This document shows positions 8,206-25,690 of a stretch of DNA of 54,520 nucleotides, piece by piece; positions within the stretch are counted from its first letter, which is position 1, and every line of letters starts with the position of its first letter. A program made the position numbers and the translations under genes. Source of the DNA: Thermoflexia bacterium (lineage in GTDB: Bacteria; Chloroflexota; Anaerolineae; B4-G1; SLSP01); the NCBI GenBank assembly GCA_011192175.1, contig DUEJ01000107.1, positions 1 through 54,520 on the forward strand, read 5' to 3'. Below the pieces are notes generated by a model. The model was not told the DNA's origin, ran no database searches, and saw only the letters and a program-made list of their open reading frames with translations.

Positions 8206-10103
8206 CTTTCCTCCTCTTGCTTGGGTAGCGTGAAGTAGAAGGTACTCCCTGCGCCAACTGTTGATTCCACCCAAACCTTTCCCTCATTCAGCTCGACGAT
8301 CTTTTTCACCAACGCCAGCCCAATGCCGGTGCTCTCAAATTCGTCACGCGGGACCAACGTCTGGAATATCTGAAAAATTTTGGCGTAATACTTGGCCGCT
8401 ATCCCCGGACCGTTATCGGCCACGCTAAACAGCCAGTAATCTCCTGCATCTGCACAGCCGATTCGCACCCACCCCTGCGGCTTGTCCATGAATTTGAGAG
8501 CGTTATCCAGCAAGTTTTGAAACACTTGTCTGAGACGCGCGCGCTCCCCCACAACGGTGGGCAATTCGTTCGTGACGGTGATCTGGATGCTAGCTGGCGG
8601 GGCCAACATCTCGAGGGTCTCTTGCACAAGCTGGTTCAGGTTCACGCTTCTTTTTTTCTCTACGACGCGCCCAATACGCGAGTATTGGAGAATTCCCTGG
8701 ATGAGACCGTGCATCCGCCTGGTGCGCCCGATCAGTAAATCTACCAGCTCTCGACCATCCGCGTCAAGCGCCTCCGCGTAATCTGTCGCGATCCAGCTGC
8801 CCAGTTGGGTGATGGCGCGCAACGGAGCTTTCAGGTCATGGGAGACGACGTAGGCAAAGTCTTTCAATTCCGCGTTGACGGCTTCCAGCTCCACGGTGCG
8901 TATCTCTACCAATTCCTCGAGATGGTCACGGTATTTCTGGAGTTCTTTCTCCGCCCGCTTGCGCTCGGAGATGTCCCGCACGATGCCCAATACGTATTTC
9001 TGAACCTCGCCTTCTCTAATCGGAGAAACCACCAAATCCACCGGAATGGGATGCCCATCTTTGTGACGCAGAGATAGCTCTTGCATGCCTCCCTCTCTCC
9101 ACATACGCGAACGCACCTCCGGAGAAACCTCTGCGCTTGGTATTCGCAGATCGTCTACCAGCATCTCTTGAAGTTCAAGGAGCGAATAACCGACCATTTC
9201 CGTGGCAGCCGGATTCACATCTTGATACTCGCCTTGCAGGTTGATAATAAAGATGGCATCCTGTGAAGCCTCGAACAGATTACGGTAACGTAACTCGCTT
9301 AAAATAGCTATGGTGTTAAAATTTTGAGCAACATAGACAGCGCTGAGCGTTATGCCCGAAAATAACAGACCCAAGAGGAATGTTCTGTTAGCATGCACAA
9401 TTTCAGAGTGCAGCAACTCCGCGGTAGGCGCAAAAATTAAATTCAAAACGGTTGTATTTTCAAAGGTTATCATTCTACTGATAACGAATTTTTCCTGAGA
9501 GGGTTGCCAGTTGTCACTTGCGAAAATTGCCAATCCCTCATCTAAAAGTTGCAACATGTAGTCATCGTCTATTTCGCTAAGTACCGGCGCAATAAATGCG
9601 CCAACATCTATAACCCCCCAAATATATCCTTGAAATTCTTCACCGTCATAGCTGGGTACCCACAGATTGATCTCTGCTGGCGTCCCCTTAACTGCACTGG
9701 CTAGCTGATTCAGAGAAGAGCTATTATCCTGAAGCGGCACAATCTGCCGGATGTGAAAGGTTCCGTCAACCCAGGCAATACTGTTTAGGCCTACAAAAGC
9801 ATCAATGTAAAAAGCCGCGTCTTTTTCCCATTCAACAATAGCTGTTTCCTCACGCGGTATGTCCCTGGCTGCCAGTCTCTCCAGGGCCTGATAGATGCTA
9901 CTATATCTAATTTCTGTTTCACTGACATAAGATCTAGCTTTAGATTCTGTGCTAGATCCTATTTGAGATAAATTTCTTGATTCTTGAGTTCTCCACAAAA
10001 AGATAGAAGTAGCCACCAAACAAAATCCCAGTAAGACTAAAAAGGGATTGGTAGAGAAGAAGTTCTTATTGGATGGGGTCTGCTTGCTTCTATAATTTGC
10101 CAT
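8202..10103 (-). CDS. Membrane sensor histidine kinase (2 TM, extracellular CHASE-like domain, PAS, HisKA, HATPase)
   Basis: Two hydrophobic segments, PAS, FAYVVSHDLKAPLR, QNLLDNALKF, DNGPGI, TGIGLAL. ATG 10103 follows AGGAG. Confidence 0.9.
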   Translation of the reverse strand: MANYRSKQTPSNKNFFSTNPFLVLLGFCLVATSIFLWRTQESRNLSQIGSSTESKARSYVSETEIRYSSIYQALERLAARDIPREETAIVEWEKDAAFYIDAFVGLNSIAWVDGTFHIRQIVPLQDNSSSLNQLASAVKGTPAEINLWVPSYDGEEFQGYIWGVIDVGAFIAPVLSEIDDDYMLQLLDEGLAIFASDNWQPSQEKFVISRMITFENTTVLNLIFAPTAELLHSEIVHANRTFLLGLLFSGITLSAVYVAQNFNTIAILSELRYRNLFEASQDAIFIINLQGEYQDVNPAATEMVGYSLLELQEMLVDDLRIPSAEVSPEVRSRMWREGGMQELSLRHKDGHPIPVDLVVSPIREGEVQKYVLGIVRDISERKRAEKELQKYRDHLEELVEIRTVELEAVNAELKDFAYVVSHDLKAPLRAITQLGSWIATDYAEALDADGRELVDLLIGRTRRMHGLIQGILQYSRIGRVVEKKRSVNLNQLVQETLEMLAPPASIQITVTNELPTVVGERARLRQVFQNLLDNALKFMDKPQGWVRIGCADAGDYWLFSVADNGPGIAAKYYAKIFQIFQTLVPRDEFESTGIGLALVKKIVELNEGKVWVESTVGAGSTFYFTLPKQEEER

Positions 10104-17507: not shown

Positions 17508-18566
17508 TCATACCTGAACATCTTCCAGAATCTGCCGCACCACGGCGACGTCCAAATCCTTCTTGTCCAGGAAAGCCACGGCGCCCGCCTCCAGGCCCAA
17601 GCGGTGAAATTCTCGATCTGGATAGGCGCTGATCAAGATAATACGTGAGCTGGGGCAGAGGGCCTTGAGACGCCGCGTACAACGAATACCGTCCTCATCG
17701 CCTAGCACCACATCGACGAGCATCAGCGCCGGGGAGAGCGCGCCCGCCAACCGCACGGCCTCTTTCACGTTACGGGCCTCGTAAATCACGGCCTGCGGGG
17801 AGGCCCGCCCGACCATGCGTCGCAATTGGGAGCGGTAGAAATCACTATCATCCACCAATAACAGGGTGAATTGTGAGGCCAAAGTCACAGCACAGATTCG
17901 AGACGCGCGCCGTGACTTTGGCTGCCGGCCGGAAAAGCCCATGATTTCAGGGTGCTCCCGCGCGTATTTTGCCGCTTCCAGCCGGCTCTGCACCTCCAGC
18001 CGGCGGTAGAGACCGGTCAGGTGATTCTCCACTGTCTTGACGCTCAATCCCAGCCGTTGCGCGATGCGCTGATTATCCAATCCTTCCTGAAGGAGCCGGA
18101 GCAGATCATGCTGGCGCGGGGTGAGCGGAGAGTCATGGTGCGTAGGAGTAGTACTTTGCACCAGTTTATCGAGCAAAGGGCTAGAGATCCAGCGCTTCCC
18201 TGCCAATACACGTTGCACGGCCAGCTTGAGATCACTGAGCGGTTGATCTTTGAGGTGATATCCATCCACGCCGGCGCTTAACAACCCTTGTACATAGACA
18301 TCATCGTCGTAGGCGCTGATGACGAGGATACGCATTTGAGGATAACGTCCATGGATCTGCCGTAGAGTGGGCAGCGGTCTGAACTCCGGCATCCGCACAT
18401 CGACGATCAATAGCTCCGGCTCCTCGGCCTCCAGGGCCGCGAGTAACGCAGGCCCATCTCCCACCTGGGCCACAATTTCCAACCCGGAGAGCTCTTGCAG
18501 CGCGTTAGAGATACCGGCCCGCACAAGAGCATGATCGTCAGCTAGGAGTACCCGTGTTTTGTTCAT
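17508..18566 (-). CDS. NarL/LuxR-family response regulator with a second C-terminal receiver domain (REC-HTH-REC)
   Basis: LADDHALVR...LLIVDVRMP; LTPRQHDLL...NQRIAQRLGLSVKTVENH (LuxR HTH); second REC LLVDDS...MLVDVVLG...FLDKK. Confidence 0.9.
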   Translation of the reverse strand: MNKTRVLLADDHALVRAGISNALQELSGLEIVAQVGDGPALLAALEAEEPELLIVDVRMPEFRPLPTLRQIHGRYPQMRILVISAYDDDVYVQGLLSAGVDGYHLKDQPLSDLKLAVQRVLAGKRWISSPLLDKLVQSTTPTHHDSPLTPRQHDLLRLLQEGLDNQRIAQRLGLSVKTVENHLTGLYRRLEVQSRLEAAKYAREHPEIMGFSGRQPKSRRASRICAVTLASQFTLLLVDDSDFYRSQLRRMVGRASPQAVIYEARNVKEAVRLAGALSPALMLVDVVLGDEDGIRCTRRLKALCPSSRIILISAYPDREFHRLGLEAGAVAFLDKKDLDVAVVRQILEDVQV

Positions 18567-18661: not shown

Positions 18662-20266
18662 TTAATTATGGAGAGAGGGATAAGGACTAGTAGGAATCTC
18701 AATCTCCAATTCCAGTCCGCCTGCGGGGGGCGACTTCACCGCTAAGGTACCAGAAAGTAATGAGACCCGTTCACTAATACCTACTAGCCCAAAATGTTTC
18801 TGCGCGGTCAATGCCGCCAGATCTACCGGCTCCGCCATCCCATAGCCATTATCAACCAAGCGCACCACCAGGCTAGCCATGTCCGTGCGCTGGAGGGAAA
18901 GTAGTACCTGCGTGGCGCTGGCGTGTTTCTGGATGTTACGCAATCCTTCTTGGATAATACGAAAAACCGAAAGTTCAATCGGTTCTGGCAAACGTCCCAA
19001 CCCTGGATCAATATCCAGCTCCACCGCAATCCCACTCCGGGTGGCCCACTGGCCTACCAACGAGCGAATGGCCGCCGAGAGACCATGATTATCAATCGTC
19101 GGCGGACGCAAGTTGCTGCAAACCTGACGCAGGCTACCCACTACTTGCCGGATACCCTGCCGAATTTGCGCCAATTCCAGAGGTTGCGCCTCAGAAGAAG
19201 GGTTCTCTATTTCTTCCAATTGATAATTATAACTCAGTAAATCTTGGATGATCTGATCATGTAACTCCCGGGCCAAGGCTTTGCGCTCGGCCTCCCGTTC
19301 ACTCATCAAGCGGCGGCCAGCATCTTGTAACGCCAGATTCAAGCTATCCAACGCTTCTAGTTGATTATTCAATCGCTCAATCAACTCGCGATTGAGCGAA
19401 TCTTTCTCTTCCAAATTCTGACGTAAGGTTAACTGATCCTGTCGTAAGGCCTCGGCCTGTTGTTGGGCGCGATGGTAGTTTTTAAACGCCCAGATCACCG
19501 GCGTGATGCGTGCTGGCTGCTTAGAACCGACAATCAGCTCCACAATCTCGCGGGGCGTAGTCTCAACGGTCCGCCGCAGGGCTAGTTGTTGCCCTTGGTA
19601 TAAAACCAGAATACGATCAGTAACGGAAAAAATCTGTTCCAAATCATCACTGCTCAGGATGACGGAGACCTGCTGTGCTCGCAAGGCCTCGATACGTTCC
19701 AATAGCTTCTCCTGCCGCGCGAAACTTAGCGCCTCTAGGGCATCATCCAGTAACAATAACCGGGAAGGGCGGCAGAGTGCTCGCGCCAACGCCACGACCT
19801 GTCTCTGTTCGTCAGAGAGGTTGACGGCCCGTTCCTTAAATAGGTGGGGAGACATCTCGAAGGCAATCAATAACTCGCGCGTTATCTTTAACATCTGCCG
19901 CTCTGCGGGCAGCAATTTTGGCCAGCTGGAGCCACAGATTTCACGTCCCAGAAACACATTGTGTGACACGTCCATATTATCGATCAACTGGGGAGCCTGT
20001 TGCACCATCGCGATGCCCAAACGTTGGGCCAGAGAAACGCTTTTAAGCACCACGGGGGTGCCATCCCAGATAATCTCACCCGCCGAAGGCGTATAAACGC
20101 CGCTGAGCAGCTTAAAAAGCGTGGATTTACCCGCGCCACGCTGGCCGACTACGCCCAGCACTTCGCCCGGCTCGAGAGCGAAGGTCACGTCCACCAATGC
20201 CGGGACTGCACCAAAGTATTGAGAGAGATGGTTAACTCTTAGGAGTTTCAATTTGTCGGTTTTCAT
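18662..20266 (-). CDS. Fusion of an ABC nucleotide-binding domain to a NarX-type (HisKA_3/HATPase) histidine kinase
   Basis: N-terminal ~250 aa: GQRGAGKST, Q-loop MVQQ, LSDEQRQ, LLLLDDA, DRILVL. Then a coiled coil, ERKALARELHD H-box, FRIIQEGLRNIQKHA, DNGYG and FGLVGISERV. No TM segment. Confidence 0.88.
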   Translation of the reverse strand: MKTDKLKLLRVNHLSQYFGAVPALVDVTFALEPGEVLGVVGQRGAGKSTLFKLLSGVYTPSAGEIIWDGTPVVLKSVSLAQRLGIAMVQQAPQLIDNMDVSHNVFLGREICGSSWPKLLPAERQMLKITRELLIAFEMSPHLFKERAVNLSDEQRQVVALARALCRPSRLLLLDDALEALSFARQEKLLERIEALRAQQVSVILSSDDLEQIFSVTDRILVLYQGQQLALRRTVETTPREIVELIVGSKQPARITPVIWAFKNYHRAQQQAEALRQDQLTLRQNLEEKDSLNRELIERLNNQLEALDSLNLALQDAGRRLMSEREAERKALARELHDQIIQDLLSYNYQLEEIENPSSEAQPLELAQIRQGIRQVVGSLRQVCSNLRPPTIDNHGLSAAIRSLVGQWATRSGIAVELDIDPGLGRLPEPIELSVFRIIQEGLRNIQKHASATQVLLSLQRTDMASLVVRLVDNGYGMAEPVDLAALTAQKHFGLVGISERVSLLSGTLAVKSPPAGGLELEIEIPTSPYPSLHN

Positions 20267-20311
20267 ATTGGACTAGGTTAGCATAGCCTCTTATTCAATC
20301 AAGCCCGCTAT

Positions 20312-20360
20312 AAAACAACGCACCGGCGTCCCAGTTGAGGCCCTTGGATTGGGACGCCGG
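20312..20360 (-). terminator. Hairpin between the sugar permease and the NBD-kinase gene
   Basis: ccggcgtccca...tgggacgccgg 11-bp stem, followed on the minus strand by tgcgttgtttt. Confidence 0.55.
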
Positions 20361-20401: not shown

Positions 20402-21586
20402 CTACTTGCTGCTGCTCCGTGTGGCGACATCAAAGACCACTGCTGCCACAAGTACCGCTCCCCGGACAACGTACTGATAAGCGATATCGATGCCCATCAA
20501 GTTCATGCCACTAGTCAGGGACATGTAAACTAGCGCACCGATAAACGACCCCATAATTTTACCCACCCCCCCCGCCGCCGATACGCCGCCGATATACGCC
20601 GCCGCGATGGCGTCCAGCTCAAAGAGCGTGCCCGCCGTGGTGGTGGCGGATTGTAGCCGGGAAGCGAATAGAATGCCCGAGAGAGCGGAAAGCATCCCCA
20701 TTGAGCCGAAGACCATATAGGTAATGTTCTTCACATTGATGCCACTCAACTCGGCAGCTTCTGGATTGCCGCCTACGGCGTAAACATGCCGGCCAACCAC
20801 CGTTTGCGTGGTCACGAAGTGGTAAATACTCACTACCAATAATACGACCACAACAGTCCAAGAGAGGCCATTATATCCCGCCAGCACCCAAGTAATGAGA
20901 GCTATTAACACCGAGACAAATACCAATTCCAAGATAAACATATCCTGGGGCAAGACTTCAAAGTCGTAAGCCTGTTTCTCTTTGCGACCACTGAGGGTAC
21001 TTTTAATAAACAGCATGATCGCCGCAACCCCCAATAACAAAGTCAGTTTGTGCATCTCTGGTAAGAAATTGCTCAAGCCAGGAATATCCGGGATGTAACC
21101 ATTGCCGATAGCATTAAAGATATTATCATTGATAATGATCGTCCCGGTGCCCGCCGTGACCAGTAACAAGGCGCCGCGATAAATCAACCAGCCCGCCAGA
21201 GAAGTCACAAAAGAGGGAATGCCCAACTGCGCCACCGGGAAAGCGGTAATCAATCCGGCCAGCGCCCCGAGCACTAACAGCAGGGGAATAACCACATACA
21301 CTGGAATATGCCAGAACGATAGTGCAATCGCCGCTATCGCGCCCAGAAAACCAGAGAGAAAGCCCACCGACAAGTCAATATGTTGAATGACGATCACTAA
21401 CGTCATCCCCACTGCTAAGATCGCAATATAACCCGTTTGATTCAGCAAGTTACTGATATTGCGTGACGAAATAAAGACACCATCCGTAGTAATGGTAAAG
21501 ATCGTCATGATGGCAAATAGGGCAATATACATGCCGTATTCGCGGATATTTTCCTTCAAAACCTTCTGCAAATCCCGAAAAAACAT
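20402..21586 (-). CDS. Monosaccharide ABC transporter permease (GguB/XylH-like)
   Basis: IDLSVG, GIPSFVTSLAG, YAVGGNPEAAELSGI, FELDAIAAAYIGG. Confidence 0.92.
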   Translation of the reverse strand: MFFRDLQKVLKENIREYGMYIALFAIMTIFTITTDGVFISSRNISNLLNQTGYIAILAVGMTLVIVIQHIDLSVGFLSGFLGAIAAIALSFWHIPVYVVIPLLLVLGALAGLITAFPVAQLGIPSFVTSLAGWLIYRGALLLVTAGTGTIIINDNIFNAIGNGYIPDIPGLSNFLPEMHKLTLLLGVAAIMLFIKSTLSGRKEKQAYDFEVLPQDMFILELVFVSVLIALITWVLAGYNGLSWTVVVVLLVVSIYHFVTTQTVVGRHVYAVGGNPEAAELSGINVKNITYMVFGSMGMLSALSGILFASRLQSATTTAGTLFELDAIAAAYIGGVSAAGGVGKIMGSFIGALVYMSLTSGMNLMGIDIAYQYVVRGAVLVAAVVFDVATRSSSK

Positions 21587-21597
21587 TTTGAGCCTCC

Positions 21598-23121
21598 TCA
21601 GTAATCCGTTGCTAGACCCATGATATTCTCTTGAGTGGCTTCCCCGGCCGGCATTTCTCCGACGATTTTACCGCCAGAGACAACGTAAATCCGGTCGCTC
21701 ATGCCTAGTACCTCCGGCAACTCAGATGATATCATGATAATACTCATCCCTTCTTGCACTAGCCGATTCATAATTGTATAAATTTCATACTTGGCACCCA
21801 CGTCAATACCACGGGTGGGTTCATCCAAAATCAAGATATCCGGTTTGACAAATAAGCATTTAGCCAAACTGACCTTCTGCTGATTACCACCGCTTAAATT
21901 CCCCACCTTTTGTTCCACGCTAGGCGTCTTGATACTCAGAGAGCGCCGATATTCATTCGCCACTTTGATCTCAGCATTATTATCAATCCTCCCCCGCAGG
22001 GAAATCTCCTCTAAATTTGCCAACGTGATATTCTGCTTCACGTCCTGGATCAAAATCAGGCCATCTCCTTTGCGATCTTCGGTGAGGTACACTAACCCCG
22101 CCACTAGCGCATCATGCGGATGGCTAAACTTCATGAGTGTCCCTCGCACAAATATCTCCCCGCTAACACGATAATTAGCGGCGTTTCCAAATAGGCTTAA
22201 TGCCAACTCTGTCCGTCCGGCGCCCATCAACCCTGCCAGCCCGACAATTTCACCTTTTCTGACGTTGAAATTGATGTCTTTCAGGATTTCTCGCCCCAGT
22301 TGCGGATCATAGGCCTGCCAATTTTTAACCTCGAGCGCGACCTCTGTGGAAATTTCATGCTCTCTAGGCGGATAGATATTATCGATCTCGCGTCCCACCA
22401 TGTACTTGATTAACGCGGACTCGGATGCTTCACCCGCACTGGCATCCAGCGTACAAATAGTCTGCCCATCGCGCAAGACAGTGACGGTATCGGCAATATC
22501 TATGATCTCCTTCAATTTATGGGAAATCAAGATGCAGGTAACCCCTTGGGCACGCTGCTCACGCAGCAAGCGCAATAAATTCTCACTATCATCTTCATTC
22601 AGCGCCGCCGTCGGCTCGTCTAAGATCAAGATACTCACATTGCGATGTAATGCTTTGGCGATTTCCACCAATTGCTGCTGCCCTACCCCCAAATTTTTGA
22701 TCTTGGTAGAAGGGTTCACATCCAATCCAACACGCTTCAGTATCACCGCAGTCTGTTTGATGGTTTCGTTCCAATCGATCGCGAGACCTTTACTGATTTC
22801 TTGACCTAGGAAGATGTTCTCATAGACCGACAATTCAGGAATCAGCGCCAATTCCTGATAGATGATAGCCACACCGGCCTGTTCGCTCTCGCTGATATGC
22901 TTATATGCCTGCACTTCTCCGTGCAACAAAATATCGCCGGTGTACGTCCCAAAGGCATGTACCCCGCTCAAGACTTTCATTAAGGTAGATTTTCCTGCGC
23001 CGTTCTCCCCCACCAAACCATGAATCTCACCCTCGGCGACCGTGAAACTAACATCGTCTAGGGCTTTCACGCCGGGGAACTCTTTAGTAATGTTCCGCAT
23101 CTCCAATATAGGAGCACCCAT
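21598..23121 (-). CDS. Monosaccharide ABC transporter ATPase with two NBDs (GguA/XylG-like)
   Basis: GENGAGKST, ILDEPTAAL, LISHKL; LSGGNQQKV, LDEPTRGIDVGAK. Confidence 0.95.
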   Translation of the reverse strand: MGAPILEMRNITKEFPGVKALDDVSFTVAEGEIHGLVGENGAGKSTLMKVLSGVHAFGTYTGDILLHGEVQAYKHISESEQAGVAIIYQELALIPELSVYENIFLGQEISKGLAIDWNETIKQTAVILKRVGLDVNPSTKIKNLGVGQQQLVEIAKALHRNVSILILDEPTAALNEDDSENLLRLLREQRAQGVTCILISHKLKEIIDIADTVTVLRDGQTICTLDASAGEASESALIKYMVGREIDNIYPPREHEISTEVALEVKNWQAYDPQLGREILKDINFNVRKGEIVGLAGLMGAGRTELALSLFGNAANYRVSGEIFVRGTLMKFSHPHDALVAGLVYLTEDRKGDGLILIQDVKQNITLANLEEISLRGRIDNNAEIKVANEYRRSLSIKTPSVEQKVGNLSGGNQQKVSLAKCLFVKPDILILDEPTRGIDVGAKYEIYTIMNRLVQEGMSIIMISSELPEVLGMSDRIYVVSGGKIVGEMPAGEATQENIMGLATDY

Positions 23122-23223: not shown

Positions 23224-25392
23224 CTACTTCTCGAAGTCAGCAGCGTCGTAATAACCCGAATCAATCAAGACTGCTTGGACATTATCGGCATCCACCGAGA
23301 CCACGGCGGATTGAATGGCCGGAACTTCAGTGGCGCCGTTATCATACGCGCCTTTGGCGGTGGGTTCTGCGCCCTGCAGCAGAGCTACTGCCGCATTGAT
23401 GGCGTCCTGTACCAGGGTGCGGACGTCTTTGAAGACAGTCATAGACTGTTTGCCATCAATGATGTATTGTACCGAAGCCTTCTCCGCATCCTGACCGGTG
23501 ACCGAGAAGCTCGTGACCTCTTTATCCGCCGCAAACGCATCCGCAATCGCGCGCGCCGTGCCATCGTTCGGAGCCAAAATGAAGACGGCGCCTTTGTCCT
23601 CGGCCCGTGCCATCGTCAAGTTAGCCTCGGCCAAGTTCTTGGCCGTATTGAAGTCCCAGTTGGTGGTGACCTGCCCGATAATCTGCGCCTGCTCATCGCG
23701 GGTTAGCTCGGCCTGGCCTTGTAATTCCTCAGCCGCACTGGAGTTCTTGATGACGAAGGTGCCGTCGGCGATTTTGGGCTGCAAGACGCTCCACGCGCCC
23801 TGGAAGAAAATGAAGGCGTTGTTATCGGAAGCGGCGCCAGCATAGAGGTAGAGCGGGTTGCCTTGCCCCTCGGCCCGGTCAACTAAATATTGCGCCTGTT
23901 GCGCACCCACCGCCACGCTATCGAAAGTCACGTAGTAATCTACGGCGTCCGTGTCACGGATCAGGCGGTCGTAGGAGATAACCTTGACGCCAGCCTCAGC
24001 GGCGGCGTTAGCTGCCGCGGCGGCGGCGGTGCCATCCTGCGGGCAAATGATCAATACTTTGACGCCCTTGGTCAGCAACGCCTCAACATTTTCTTTTTCC
24101 TTAGCGGAAGAACCCTGGCTGAAGAGAATCTCCACATCGTAGCCGGCCTTCGCGAAGGCGTCACGGAAGCGTTCTTCATCTTGAATCCAGCGCGGTTCAT
24201 CTTTCGTCGGCAATACCACTCCCACTGCCAATTTGCCTTCGGGGGCAACGGCCCCTGCGTCTAACCCGGTGAAGTCAGCCGCATCGTAATAGCCAGAATC
24301 AAGCAAGGCCGCCTTGACGTTGTCTGAGTCCACCGAAACCACCGCGGATTGAATAGCGGGAACATCCGTGGCGCCGTTATTATAGGAACCGCTGGCCTCG
24401 GGGTTCTTACCTTCAAGCAAGGCCACTGCTGCATTGATGGCGTCCTGTACCAGCGTGCGGACGTCTTTGAAGACGGTCATGGATTGCTTGCCATCAATGA
24501 TGTACTGCACCGACGCTTGCTCGGCATCCTGCCCGGTCACCAAATAGCTCGTGACCTCCTTATCCGCGGCAAACGCATCGGCGATCGCGCGCGCCGTGCC
24601 ATCGTTCGGAGCCAAGATGAAGACGTCGCCCTTATCCGCGGTTACCGCAGCAGTCAGGTTGGCCTCGGCCAAATTCTTGGCCGTGTTAAAGTCCCAGTTG
24701 GTGGTGACCTGCCCGATGATCTGCGCCTGCTCGTCACGGGTCAGTTCCGCCTTACCCATCAAATCAATGGCTTCACTGGAGTTCTTGATCACGAAGGTGC
24801 CATCGGCGATTTTGGGCTGCAAAACGCTCCACGCGCCCTGGAAGAAGATGAAGGCGTTGTTATCGGAAGCGGCGCCAGCGTAGAGGTAAAGCGGGTTGCC
24901 TTGCCCCTCGGCCCGGTCAACCAAGTATTGCGCCTGTTGCGCACCCACCGCCACGCTATCGAAAGTCACGTAATAATCTACCGCGTCCGTGTCACGGATC
25001 AGGCGGTCGTAGGAGATAACCTTGACGCCAGCCTCAGCCGCCGCATTAGCTGCCGCTGCTGCCGCAGTCCCATCTTGCGGGCAGATGATAATTACCTCAA
25101 CCCCCTTGGTGATCAGCGCCTCGACGTTCTCTTTCTCCTTCGCCGAAGAACCCTGGCTAAAGAGAATCTCCACATCATAGCCGACTGCACCCAGCATATC
25201 GCGGAAGCGCGTCTCATCCTGAATCCAGCGCGGCTCATCTTTCGTCGGTAATACCACGCCAACTGCTAGTTTCTCTGCTGGCTCAGTATCGGCGGGGGCA
25301 TCGGTAACTTCCGCATCTCCGCCACAAGCAACAAGAAGCATTGCAGCCAAAACCAGGAGCGCTAAAACAGCCAACAAATTTTTTCTAAACAT
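23224..25392 (-). CDS. Sugar-binding lipoprotein with two tandem ChvE-like domains
   Basis: Lipobox LVAC; KLAVGVVLPTKDEPRWIQDE...VISYDRLI...ILAPNDGTA...QSMTVFKD...DSGYY occurs twice. ATG 25392 follows GGAGG. Confidence 0.92.
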   Translation of the reverse strand: MFRKNLLAVLALLVLAAMLLVACGGDAEVTDAPADTEPAEKLAVGVVLPTKDEPRWIQDETRFRDMLGAVGYDVEILFSQGSSAKEKENVEALITKGVEVIIICPQDGTAAAAAANAAAEAGVKVISYDRLIRDTDAVDYYVTFDSVAVGAQQAQYLVDRAEGQGNPLYLYAGAASDNNAFIFFQGAWSVLQPKIADGTFVIKNSSEAIDLMGKAELTRDEQAQIIGQVTTNWDFNTAKNLAEANLTAAVTADKGDVFILAPNDGTARAIADAFAADKEVTSYLVTGQDAEQASVQYIIDGKQSMTVFKDVRTLVQDAINAAVALLEGKNPEASGSYNNGATDVPAIQSAVVSVDSDNVKAALLDSGYYDAADFTGLDAGAVAPEGKLAVGVVLPTKDEPRWIQDEERFRDAFAKAGYDVEILFSQGSSAKEKENVEALLTKGVKVLIICPQDGTAAAAAANAAAEAGVKVISYDRLIRDTDAVDYYVTFDSVAVGAQQAQYLVDRAEGQGNPLYLYAGAASDNNAFIFFQGAWSVLQPKIADGTFVIKNSSAAEELQGQAELTRDEQAQIIGQVTTNWDFNTAKNLAEANLTMARAEDKGAVFILAPNDGTARAIADAFAADKEVTSFSVTGQDAEKASVQYIIDGKQSMTVFKDVRTLVQDAINAAVALLQGAEPTAKGAYDNGATEVPAIQSAVVSVDADNVQAVLIDSGYYDAADFEK

Positions 25393-25550
25393 GTCCATCC
25401 TCCATAAAGTTAGGTTCATACAGGGTAAAATTAACTAAATTCTCTCTCCTGAGAGTTAGAGTTTCTCTGACTTCTCTTCCCACTTACCTCCTTAGCTCCT
25501 ATAAAGCACCTCCAATCAACAACCGCTTCATCAGATTGACGCACAAGATA

Positions 25551-25579
25551 ATCATAGCCTCAGCCTGGGGTAGAATCAA
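25551..25579 (-). promoter_or_regulatory. Putative sigma70 promoter of the sugar ABC operon
   Basis: Minus strand TTGATT-N17-TATGAT. Confidence 0.5.
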
Positions 25580-25690
25580 TCTCTCTTCCCCTTTTTGAGC
25601 TAGTGTTTACCCTCAAGCCGGTCGGGGGGTTTCCCCTAACGACCCGCGAAAATACCATCATGCAGGCGCCAGACGCACTAGCTCGCCAGT

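Follow-up and report, generated by a model that had tools for sequence, protein, structure and literature searches.

The analyzed window, a stretch of 54,520 nucleotides (nt) from the Thermoflexia bacterium assembly GCA_011192175.1 (contig DUEJ01000107.1, positions 1 to 54,520), carries a one-strand block of five genes in the order binding protein, GguA-like ATPase, GguB-like permease, histidine kinase and response regulator, flanked by a chaperonin gene on one side and by an oppositely oriented, unrelated ATP-binding cassette (ABC) operon on the other. The subject of this analysis is the fourth gene (18662..20266, minus strand), which begins with ATG and encodes a protein of 534 amino acids (aa) combining an ABC nucleotide-binding domain (NBD), a helical linker and a histidine kinase core. 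Pfam analysis placed ABC_tran (PF00005) at residues 26-177 (9.8e-27; 94.7 bits against a cut-off of 25), HisKA_3 (PF07730) at 327-389 (1.1e-10; 42.4 bits) and HATPase_c (PF02518) at 432-526 (3.9e-6; 27.7 bits), the latter two also exceeding their cut-offs, and a scan of all 534 residues returned no further domain above threshold. The protein has no predicted transmembrane segment, as no 19-residue Kyte-Doolittle window reaches 1.6. The analysis bears out the architecture proposed in a previous sequence-only reading of this DNA, namely a single open reading frame (ORF) joining an ABC NBD, a coiled coil and a HisKA_3/HATPase_c core with neither membrane span nor other sensor domain, and the Pfam scan which that reading had suggested recovered all three expected families.

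The input domain (aa 9-246; 19529..20242, minus strand) is a single NBD resembling the first NBD (NBD1) of CUT2 sugar-transporter ATPases according to Pfam, NCBIfam, Foldseek, the structure model and the tree described below. The best NCBIfam models for residues 8-249 were the N-terminal halves of the sugar CUT2 ATPases YtfR, XylG, RbsA, AraG and GguA; with scores far below the equivalog cut-offs (148.5 bits vs 850 for YtfR and 124.9 vs 810 for GguA) and only one NBD, covering model positions 1-240 of about 500, the kinase falls outside the CUT2 equivalog ATPases. The linker (aa 251-335; 19262..19516, minus strand), delimited by residue distances in relatives and by modelled helices, opens with a TPxxW motif. 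The kinase core (18689..19291, minus strand), of the NarX/DesK/UhpB group, consists of a HisKA_3-type dimerization and histidine phosphotransfer domain (DHp) with the phospho-acceptor His336 (codon 19259-19261) and a HATPase_c-type catalytic domain (CA; aa 395-526) with N, G1 and G2 boxes; residues H336, N444, D472, G474 and G476 are invariant in 70 aligned sequences, and the NCBIfam UhpB model matches residues 299-526 at 2.8e-29. An AlphaFold2 model built from the 70-relative alignment had a mean predicted local distance difference test (pLDDT) value of 80.5, exceeding 90 in the NBD (9-246), and showed helices at 251-287, at 292-353 (leading into His336) and, in the DHp, at 362-386, followed by the CA domain at 395-525. 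For the N-terminal part, Foldseek retrieved nothing but ordinary ABC NBDs (best E ~1e-17) and found no solved chain spanning both halves of the kinase.

The three preceding genes, all on the same minus strand, constitute a complete ChvE/GguA/GguB-like operon with its own ATPase, which the kinase gene directly follows, as the sequence-only reading had stated and NCBIfam assignments confirm. They encode a tandem double ChvE-like substrate-binding protein (SBP) of 731 aa (23224..25419; two Peripla_BP_4 stretches; NCBIfam ChvE, 3e-157), a GguA-like tandem-NBD ATPase, which is the transporter's own motor (21598..23121; NCBIfam GguA, 4.8e-223), and a GguB-like CUT2 permease (20402..21586; NCBIfam GguB, 4e-118) with an EAA-type coupling helix, YAVGGNPEAAELSGI, at aa 269-283. 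Both ChvE-like domains of the binding protein lie in one chain behind a single signal and lipoprotein-like N-terminus; many related loci share this duplicated arrangement (about 724-738 aa), others having a single-domain protein. The response regulator gene (17508..18566, minus strand) starts 95 nt downstream of the kinase gene, and its product of 352 aa, previously labelled a LuxR regulator, is not a plain LuxR protein: Pfam and NCBIfam resolve it as REC-GerE-REC, a GerE domain of the LuxR/NarL type between two receiver domains (REC). The second receiver domain appears to be complete, and the three-domain form is conserved beside the kinase family-wide. Pfam detected neither PhoU nor an FtsX-type permease in the module, the permease being of the BPD_transp_2 family, and the intramembrane kinase and FtsX-type permease of Bce-type modules are both lacking. 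The 135-nt spacer between permease and kinase genes contains a hairpin with an 11-bp stem and a T-rich tail (20311..20360, minus strand; terminator-like at 20335-20317). A hairpin of this kind could attenuate read-through into the signalling genes, and it may act as a partial terminator, keeping the kinase scarce relative to the transporter.

The NBD-histidine kinase is an established, conserved gene family of Chloroflexota and not an accident of assembly, given the number of relatives, the contigs of two studies that carry the gene and the matches obtained in genome-wide searches. The 120 best hits in a collection of 5.8 billion proteins measured about 510-554 aa and showed at least 95% query coverage and 64-100% identity; besides the window protein, 119 full-length relatives are among the matches listed. 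All three Pfam domains were present in 116 of these hits, and ABC_tran plus HisKA_3 in the other four. Where named, the source organisms were Chloroflexota, Anaerolineae, Anaerolineales or Thermoflexia. The whole ORF is spanned by contigs from two studies with 1-4 differences each, and one of these contigs is perhaps the window's own source; no RNA data set was among the sequencing runs listed for the gene. In profile searches, 26 genomes of an even sample of 401 Chloroflexota, among them the one from which the window comes, had a full-length match, as did 29 of 121 genomes belonging to a single order; the window genome (86% complete) harbors one copy of the gene. The worry that the fusion might be unique to this assembly is therefore dispelled.

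Single-contig "fusions" in metagenome protein sets nevertheless need checking. P0156, an ABC_tran-HisKA_3 protein with canonical motifs considered as a wider member of the NBD-kinases, proved to be a chimeric singleton on a contig of 1976 nt, its N-terminal 42% being 97% identical to a sugar ABC ATPase and its C-terminal 59% being 97% identical to PAS-kinase-REC proteins, including a Terriglobales one. This sequence accounts for one of the 124 relatives in the motif counts given below, for one of the 70 rows of the alignment, which also fed the structure model and the complex model, and for one tip of the tree; no conclusion is based on it. P0151 (NBD-PAS-PAS-kinase) and P0222 (NBD-GAF-HisKA) are unverified singletons on short contigs, and a search with residues 1-320 of P0222 found no second protein of its architecture. 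Eight places in genomes with long open frames over the NBD match turned out to be ordinary tandem CUT2 ATPases. The language-model neighbours in the ESM Atlas, where feature scores below 0.9 were taken as leads only, comprise Bacillota clusters of ~615 aa with HisKA_2 and HATPase_c, 45-83% with ABC_tran (score 0.86), and a structure search in the same resource gave, likewise as a lead only, a Pseudomonadota cluster with ABC_tran and Sugar-bind domains (TM-score 0.46). Judging from these leads, NBDs may be more widespread as input domains of regulators. Searches through the main text of openly available papers turned up no description of a histidine kinase with a fused ABC NBD, and a 2026 preprint about HisKA profiles contains neither "ABC" nor "transporter"; the design appears to be unstudied.

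Alignment with GguA located in the window NBD the Walker A motif GQRGAGKST (41-49), the Q-loop glutamine Q90, the signature LSDEQ (150-154), the Walker B stretch LLLLDD (170-175, with the acidic pair D174-D175) and the stretch SSDD (205-208), in which D207 stands where the H-loop histidine is expected; all five had been quoted correctly from the translation. The NBD therefore has the Walker A consensus GxxGxGK[ST] and the Q-loop Gln, and lacks the canonical catalytic set of LSGGQ, Walker B Asp-Glu and H-loop His. Among 124 relatives, the Walker A Lys and the Q-loop Gln are each retained in 122 and the Walker B Asp in all; the signature reads L-S-[D/N/G]-E-Q, with Glu at the fourth position in 123 sequences, an Asp replaces the H-loop His in 119, and no relative possesses that His. 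The residue next to the Walker B Asp is mixed (Asp in 95, Asn in 16, Glu in 11), and of seven divergent relatives (45-56% identity) all have the signature Glu and lack the H-loop His, while six keep the Walker B Glu. The Walker B change from Glu to Asp, which had been listed among the degenerate motifs, is hence a subclade trait, and what marks the family as a whole is an intact P-loop, LSxEQ and the absence of the H-loop His. The altered motifs are fixed states rather than products of random decay, the latter being an outcome of which the sequence-only reading had warned. An aromatic residue, Phe18, is also conserved in kinase NBDs, as are G107 and E109 of the FLGxE stretch (at least 90%). 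One distant relative, the singleton P0130, has lost Walker A altogether; its context was sought in one metagenome scan, which gave generic kinases only.

A comparable set of substitutions is described for yeast Pdr5, an asymmetric ABC transporter (PMC8421411), where the ATP-occupied, non-hydrolysing site has the signature LNVEQ and a Walker B Asn; because of this site, an LSxEQ-type combination is known to accompany nucleotide binding without turnover. The likeness of this nucleotide-binding site 1 (NBS1) to the kinase NBD extends to the Glu at signature position 4 (LNVEQ vs LS[DNG]EQ), the replaced Walker B Glu (Asn in Pdr5; Asp or Asn here) and the absent H-loop His; the difference is that in Pdr5 the degenerate site lies beside a working one, whereas in a kinase homodimer both would be degenerate and the output would be kinase activity instead of transport. 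By this analogy we infer that the kinase NBD binds ATP without hydrolysing it, or hydrolyses it poorly. It is unlikely to drive transport itself, because the H-loop His is lost and the signature is non-canonical. The same motif states would also suit a free cytoplasmic nucleotide sensor, in which the NBD would never sit on a permease but would bind ATP or ADP and dimerise according to the energy charge of the cell, tuning the expression of an ATP-consuming sugar importer to it: the Walker A Lys and Phe18 are kept while the hydrolysis motifs are altered. We consider such a sensor unlikely, since the residues predicted to contact the permease, Q90, G107 and E109, have stayed conserved as well, and P0130 dispenses with Walker A entirely.

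The connection between the NBD and the kinase core is strikingly uniform in length. The NBD ends in the TPxxW motif, which hardly varies, and the distance from the Trp of this motif to the phospho-acceptor His amounts to 77 residues (11 heptads) in 125 of the 128 relatives; the remaining three did not match the search pattern. In the best heptad register 16 of 23 a/d positions are hydrophobic. A rigid linker free of insertions and deletions is what one expects of mechanical coupling from NBD to kinase, and its invariant length points to such coupling. The frequency of the top residue is 0.71 in the linker, 0.73 in the DHp, 0.67 in the CA domain and 0.61 in the NBD, the linker thus matching the DHp in conservation. 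With the NBD as the least conserved domain, its hydrolysis motifs broken and the extra REC of the regulator unexplained, it might be argued that the NBD is vestigial or structural, a mere module for dimerisation or stability, and that the kinase is constitutive or controlled elsewhere, for example through the regulator's second REC. This account appears quite improbable: particular non-canonical residues are fixed and do not drift, hardly any variation is seen in Walker A, the Q-loop or the TPxxW junction, the constant linker length points to mechanical coupling, and the fusion has persisted across many genera.

The kinase NBD aligned best with NBD1 of GguA, and in a FastTree phylogeny of 67 NBDs the kinase NBDs, leaving out two unverified or chimeric singletons, formed one clade beside CUT2 NBD1 domains and single-NBD ATPases, with modest support (0.76). 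The best explanation of these relationships is that the kinase NBD was derived from NBD1 of CUT2 sugar-transporter ATPases. A tandem two-NBD ATPase typifies the CUT2 transporter family, and GguA is asymmetric: its NBD1 combines a degenerate signature (LGVGQ) with good Walker A, Walker B and H-loop motifs, and its NBD2 has a good signature, with the Walker A Lys changed to Arg and the H-loop His to Ser. A single canonical NBD ATPase of 265 aa (LSGGQ, DEPT, SHR) was observed in the CUT2-type operons of loci L024, L032, L034, L035, L036, L038 and L043. Locus L005 (4141-6699, plus strand) has an ORF of 852 aa composed of GguA NBD1, a ChvE/periplasmic-binding-protein-like domain that is 65% identical to residues 131-466 of the window binding protein, and GguA NBD2; the same pattern occurs in L016, L020 and L021, four loci in total, and a binding-protein fold inside this cytoplasmic ATPase may be an internal sugar sensor of the motor.

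The second of the mechanisms offered in the sequence-only reading was that the kinase NBD pairs with the transporter ATPase, standing head-to-tail with GguA or with a single-NBD ATPase and reading the motor cycle. PstB-PhoU-PhoR provides a precedent for signalling from an NBD to a kinase, and in the seven loci with a single-NBD ATPase a heterodimer could in principle form. Such pairing is nevertheless very unlikely: both composite sites would be defective, LSxEQ facing the good Walker A and LSGGQ facing the NBD without an H-loop His; tandem GguA pairs its two NBDs within its own chain; and a dimeric kinase already supplies two NBDs. Nor does pairing gain anything from the units without an ATPase gene, described below, which offer nothing to pair with and cannot work in this way.

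Gene context was compared in 73 distinct loci (the window, 44 loci from species-representative genomes and 28 from genome searches, six duplicates having been removed), many of which stem from related genomes, so that the counts are not independent events. Six loci were too short to judge. A CUT2 sugar-transporter gene lies beside the kinase gene in 63 of the 67 judgeable loci, in keeping with the linkage to monosaccharide-type ABC genes expected from the window. These 63 comprise 39 loci with ATPase, permease and kinase genes on one strand, five in which permease and kinase are visible but the contig ends before any ATPase gene, one with the regulator gene between permease and kinase, 11 with an adjoining transporter operon in another order or on the other strand, and seven with binding-protein and permease genes directly before the kinase and no ATPase gene between. 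In three of the remaining loci the kinase stands alone or with its regulator only, flanked on both sides by other genes over at least 3.3 kb, and one locus is a deletion remnant: in L042 (6836-8843), which is degraded, the ATPase, permease and NBD are deleted, and directly after a binding-protein gene comes a truncated kinase of 227 aa that begins past the NBD. Full-length orthologues of the cognate regulator are found beside the kinase in most loci; the partner ATPase is a tandem GguA in most and the canonical single NBD of 265 aa in others, and the partner permeases belong to at least three CUT2 subfamilies. A sensor of cellular energy charge would have no reason to adjoin one transporter family so regularly.

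The seven loci without an intervening ATPase gene are the most informative for the function of the NBD. In L070, L093, L095 and L097 no ATPase gene occurs anywhere on the kinase's strand run. The genes of L070 are arranged as permease, binding protein and kinase, separated by 5 and 6 nt, and within 11 kb no ABC NBD was found besides the kinase's own. In L093, L095 and L097, which belong to one genus, a unit of binding-protein, permease and kinase genes diverges from the regulator gene; a complete ChvE-GguA-GguB operon follows the regulator in L093, a ChvE-type operon follows it in L095, where the sequence stops inside the SBP gene, and the L097 contig ends just past it. In L071, L072 and L111 the unit is preceded, on its own strand, by a complete transporter operon. 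Lipoprotein signal peptides are present at the start of the second binding proteins in L095, L097 and L111; the second permease of the L093 type keeps the coupling motif VVGG[NS]PEAA, and that of the L070 type has it altered yet recognisable. An exported binding protein, a permease equipped to hold NBDs and an NBD-kinase in one unit are, as a gene layout, hard to read except as the parts of one receptor. A free nucleotide sensor, conversely, would have no reason to be the sole NBD in operons of a lipoprotein SBP and a permease.

Contact between the kinase NBD and the window permease was modelled, as the sequence-only reading had proposed, as a 1:1 complex of GguB (31-sequence alignment) and kinase residues 1-262 (70-sequence alignment), with three unrelated proteins as controls. 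The complex scored 0.62 and the best of the three controls 0.00; the mark applied to such scores is reached by 58 of 80 solved complexes and by 2 of 110 mismatched pairs. Contacts agreed to at least 92% between runs, and the partner pLDDT was at least 79. In the model, which shows the canonical interface, permease residues 261-284, which include the helix YAVGGNPEAAELSGI, invariant in 31 GguB orthologues, insert into the Q-loop groove of the NBD (89-111, the Q-loop and the FLGRE stretch). No structure of a GguB/RbsC-type permease was found in the PDB by sequence. According to the model the NBD appears to have kept the ability to dock, which does not mean that docking happens. Combined with the ATPase-less units and the invariant linker, it leads us to favour, by a narrow measure, a receptor in which the NBDs of the kinase dock on the CUT2 permease, replacing the ATPase or competing with it, and report the occupancy of the binding protein.

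Several observations weigh against this receptor. The controls of the complex model were unrelated proteins, and a close cousin of a true partner can also pass; ABC NBD-permease complexes in general have been solved, so that the pass may reflect that likeness. Conservation at the 23 interface positions is lower than elsewhere in the NBD (entropy 2.11 vs 1.62), 9905 of 10000 random position sets being as conserved as the interface or more so, nor do these positions track permease type more than other variable positions do, 3078 of 10000 random sets scoring as high. In 23 matched loci, conservation at the interface and in the rest of the domain was 0.54 vs 0.70 for the kinase NBD and 0.77 vs 0.85 for GguA NBD1, and positions 57, 89, 93, 94 and 102 are invariant in GguA and variable in the kinase NBD. 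In the window, tandem GguA already fills both coupling sites of the GguB dimer, so that docking there needs competition or a sub-population of permeases. The permeases of the ATPase-less units might alternatively borrow an ATPase encoded elsewhere, a real possibility for L071, L072 and L111, where the second permease and SBP could be served by the ATPase of the upstream operon. Finally, L068, L092 and L110 show no transporter gene over at least 3.3 kb to either side of the kinase, and in L068 a matching cluster of regulator, SBP, single-NBD and permease genes lies ~470 kb away. The comparatively relaxed surface predicted to contact the permease and these three isolated kinases also speak for the free nucleotide sensor.

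The first mechanism of the sequence-only reading, that the NBD docks on the permease and converts transport cycles into autophosphorylation, is thus partly supported. Docking is supported indirectly by the ATPase-less units, the fit of the EAA helix in the modelled Q-loop groove and the fixed linker, and is qualified by an interface less conserved than that of GguA; the conversion of transport cycles is probably too strong a claim for an NBD with LSxEQ and no H-loop His.

A candidate operator and promoter lie upstream of the binding-protein gene in the window (25551..25640, minus strand; promoter-like site at 25579-25551), with the palindrome TTAGGGGAAACCCCCC, two GGG(G)-A-rich half sites, a -35 element TTGATT and a -10 element TATGAT. 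All 16 loci with sufficient sequence have the pattern [AG]GGGG-N2-4-[CT]CCC[CT] ahead of the binding-protein gene, against a mean of 0.045 of 16 in shuffled sequences; the palindrome, AGGGG-A/T-rich-CCCCT, is positioned 181-292 nt before the start codon of that gene, and two G-rich half sites and promoter-like -35/-10 elements follow it. Of 23 additional loci, 18 contain the pattern as well; where its position was checked, it mostly falls in a promoter region next to the regulator or binding-protein gene, although the L101 match is 4.6 kb downstream of the kinase and one L100 match is far upstream of the module. The pattern was not found in the three transporter-less loci L068, L092 and L110, nor in L098 and L111. 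The window genome contains no other convincing copy; a second operator-like site (C92:167) is inside a coding frame and was taken as a chance match. In L070 the palindrome (9303-9316) has the regulator gene on one side and, on the other, a gene for a binding protein of another family, SBP_bac_1, which suggests that this sensor unit controls a different transporter. Binding of a GerE/NarL-type regulator to a 7-N-7-like palindrome immediately ahead of a promoter is the textbook arrangement. The simplest circuit would then run from kinase to regulator to operator and give sugar-dependent control of the operon together with its signalling genes, the pairing of this regulator with this operator being the step that we infer.

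In the docking receptor favoured here, the kinase would dimerise through its DHp and the 11-heptad coiled coil, bringing two NBDs side by side as in an ABC ATPase, and this NBD pair would engage the EAA coupling helices on the cytoplasmic face of a dimeric CUT2 permease. The permease would be GguB in the window, where kinase and GguA would compete for it; some relatives would instead use a second, dedicated permease that lacks its own ATPase gene. Docking of the sugar-loaded lipoprotein binding protein on the outside would shift the permease and so alter the spacing of two NBDs that bind ATP and hydrolyse it poorly or not at all; the rigid linker would relay this change to the DHp and set the autophosphorylation of His336. 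From there phosphate would pass to the REC-GerE-REC regulator, which would bind the GGGG-N-CCCC palindrome before the binding-protein gene and control the transporter operon, including its own genes. Carried one step further, the system may be an ABC importer scaffold turned into a transmembrane receptor, composed of lipoprotein SBP, CUT2 permease and, in the ATPase's place, a dimeric NBD-kinase whose NBDs open and close with SBP docking and drive the kinase through the 11-heptad coil; the ATPase-less units would be pure, non-transporting sensors that control a neighbouring real transporter, and the window kinase would sample the working permease. This fuller picture we regard as plausible, without quite calling it probable.

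If correct, such an arrangement would have several consequences. Coupling of NBD closure to kinase activity within one soluble polypeptide through a rigid linker would be experimentally convenient, and it could turn the long-debated question of how ABC permeases pass SBP docking to their NBDs into a phosphorylation readout. Anaerolineae-type Chloroflexota are abundant and mostly uncultured, and their gene regulation is hardly known; the regulator-operator pair is testable for sugar uptake in these organisms. Even if docking proves wrong, what is left is a family of kinases with a nucleotide-binding input domain that has yet to be studied.

The prevailing view is that two-component kinases detect external signals with their own membrane-spanning sensor domains or, in a few cases, through membrane contact with a separate transporter. 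In BceAB-BceS, PstSCAB-PhoU-PhoR, DctA-DcuS and UhpC-UhpB, a transporter or transporter homologue senses and a separate kinase reads its state. UhpB is likewise of the HisKA_3 type, but the kinases of the Bce, Pst, DctA and UhpC systems are membrane proteins that make contact in the membrane or via an adaptor such as PhoU, whereas here a transporter-derived domain is covalently part of a soluble kinase. An extracytoplasmic SBP reporting to a two-component kinase is also the arrangement of XylFII-LytS, LuxP-LuxQ, TorT-TorS, HptA-HptS and ChvE-VirA, as reviewed in PMC8050422; XylFII, LuxP and ChvE share the Peripla_BP_4 fold with the binding protein described here, and XylFII-LytS controls a transporter operon, xylFGH (PMC8050422). 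In those systems, as that text presents them, the SBP touches the periplasmic domain of a membrane-spanning kinase; the present kinase has neither transmembrane segment nor periplasmic domain, so that its signal would have to cross through an ABC permease. Neither "ATPase" nor "nucleotide binding domain" appears in the main text of PMC8050422. CbrA and CrbS resemble the NBD-kinase in having a transporter module covalently fused to a histidine kinase, and differ in that the module is the SLC5 membrane domain of a secondary carrier (PMC7096432, PMC5715377), while here it is a cytoplasmic ABC motor domain and the membrane part is separate. The GlnH-GlnX-PknG system of Corynebacterium and Mycobacterium, as outlined in PMC8050422 and PMC9769921, likewise combines an SBP outside, a membrane protein and a soluble kinase, but GlnX is no ABC permease and PknG is a Ser/Thr kinase without an NBD. 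None of the known systems compared here fuses an ABC motor domain to a soluble kinase, and the motor domain hard-wired to a kinase would, if the docking receptor is true, constitute a third, so far undescribed route by which a soluble kinase reads an extracellular ligand.

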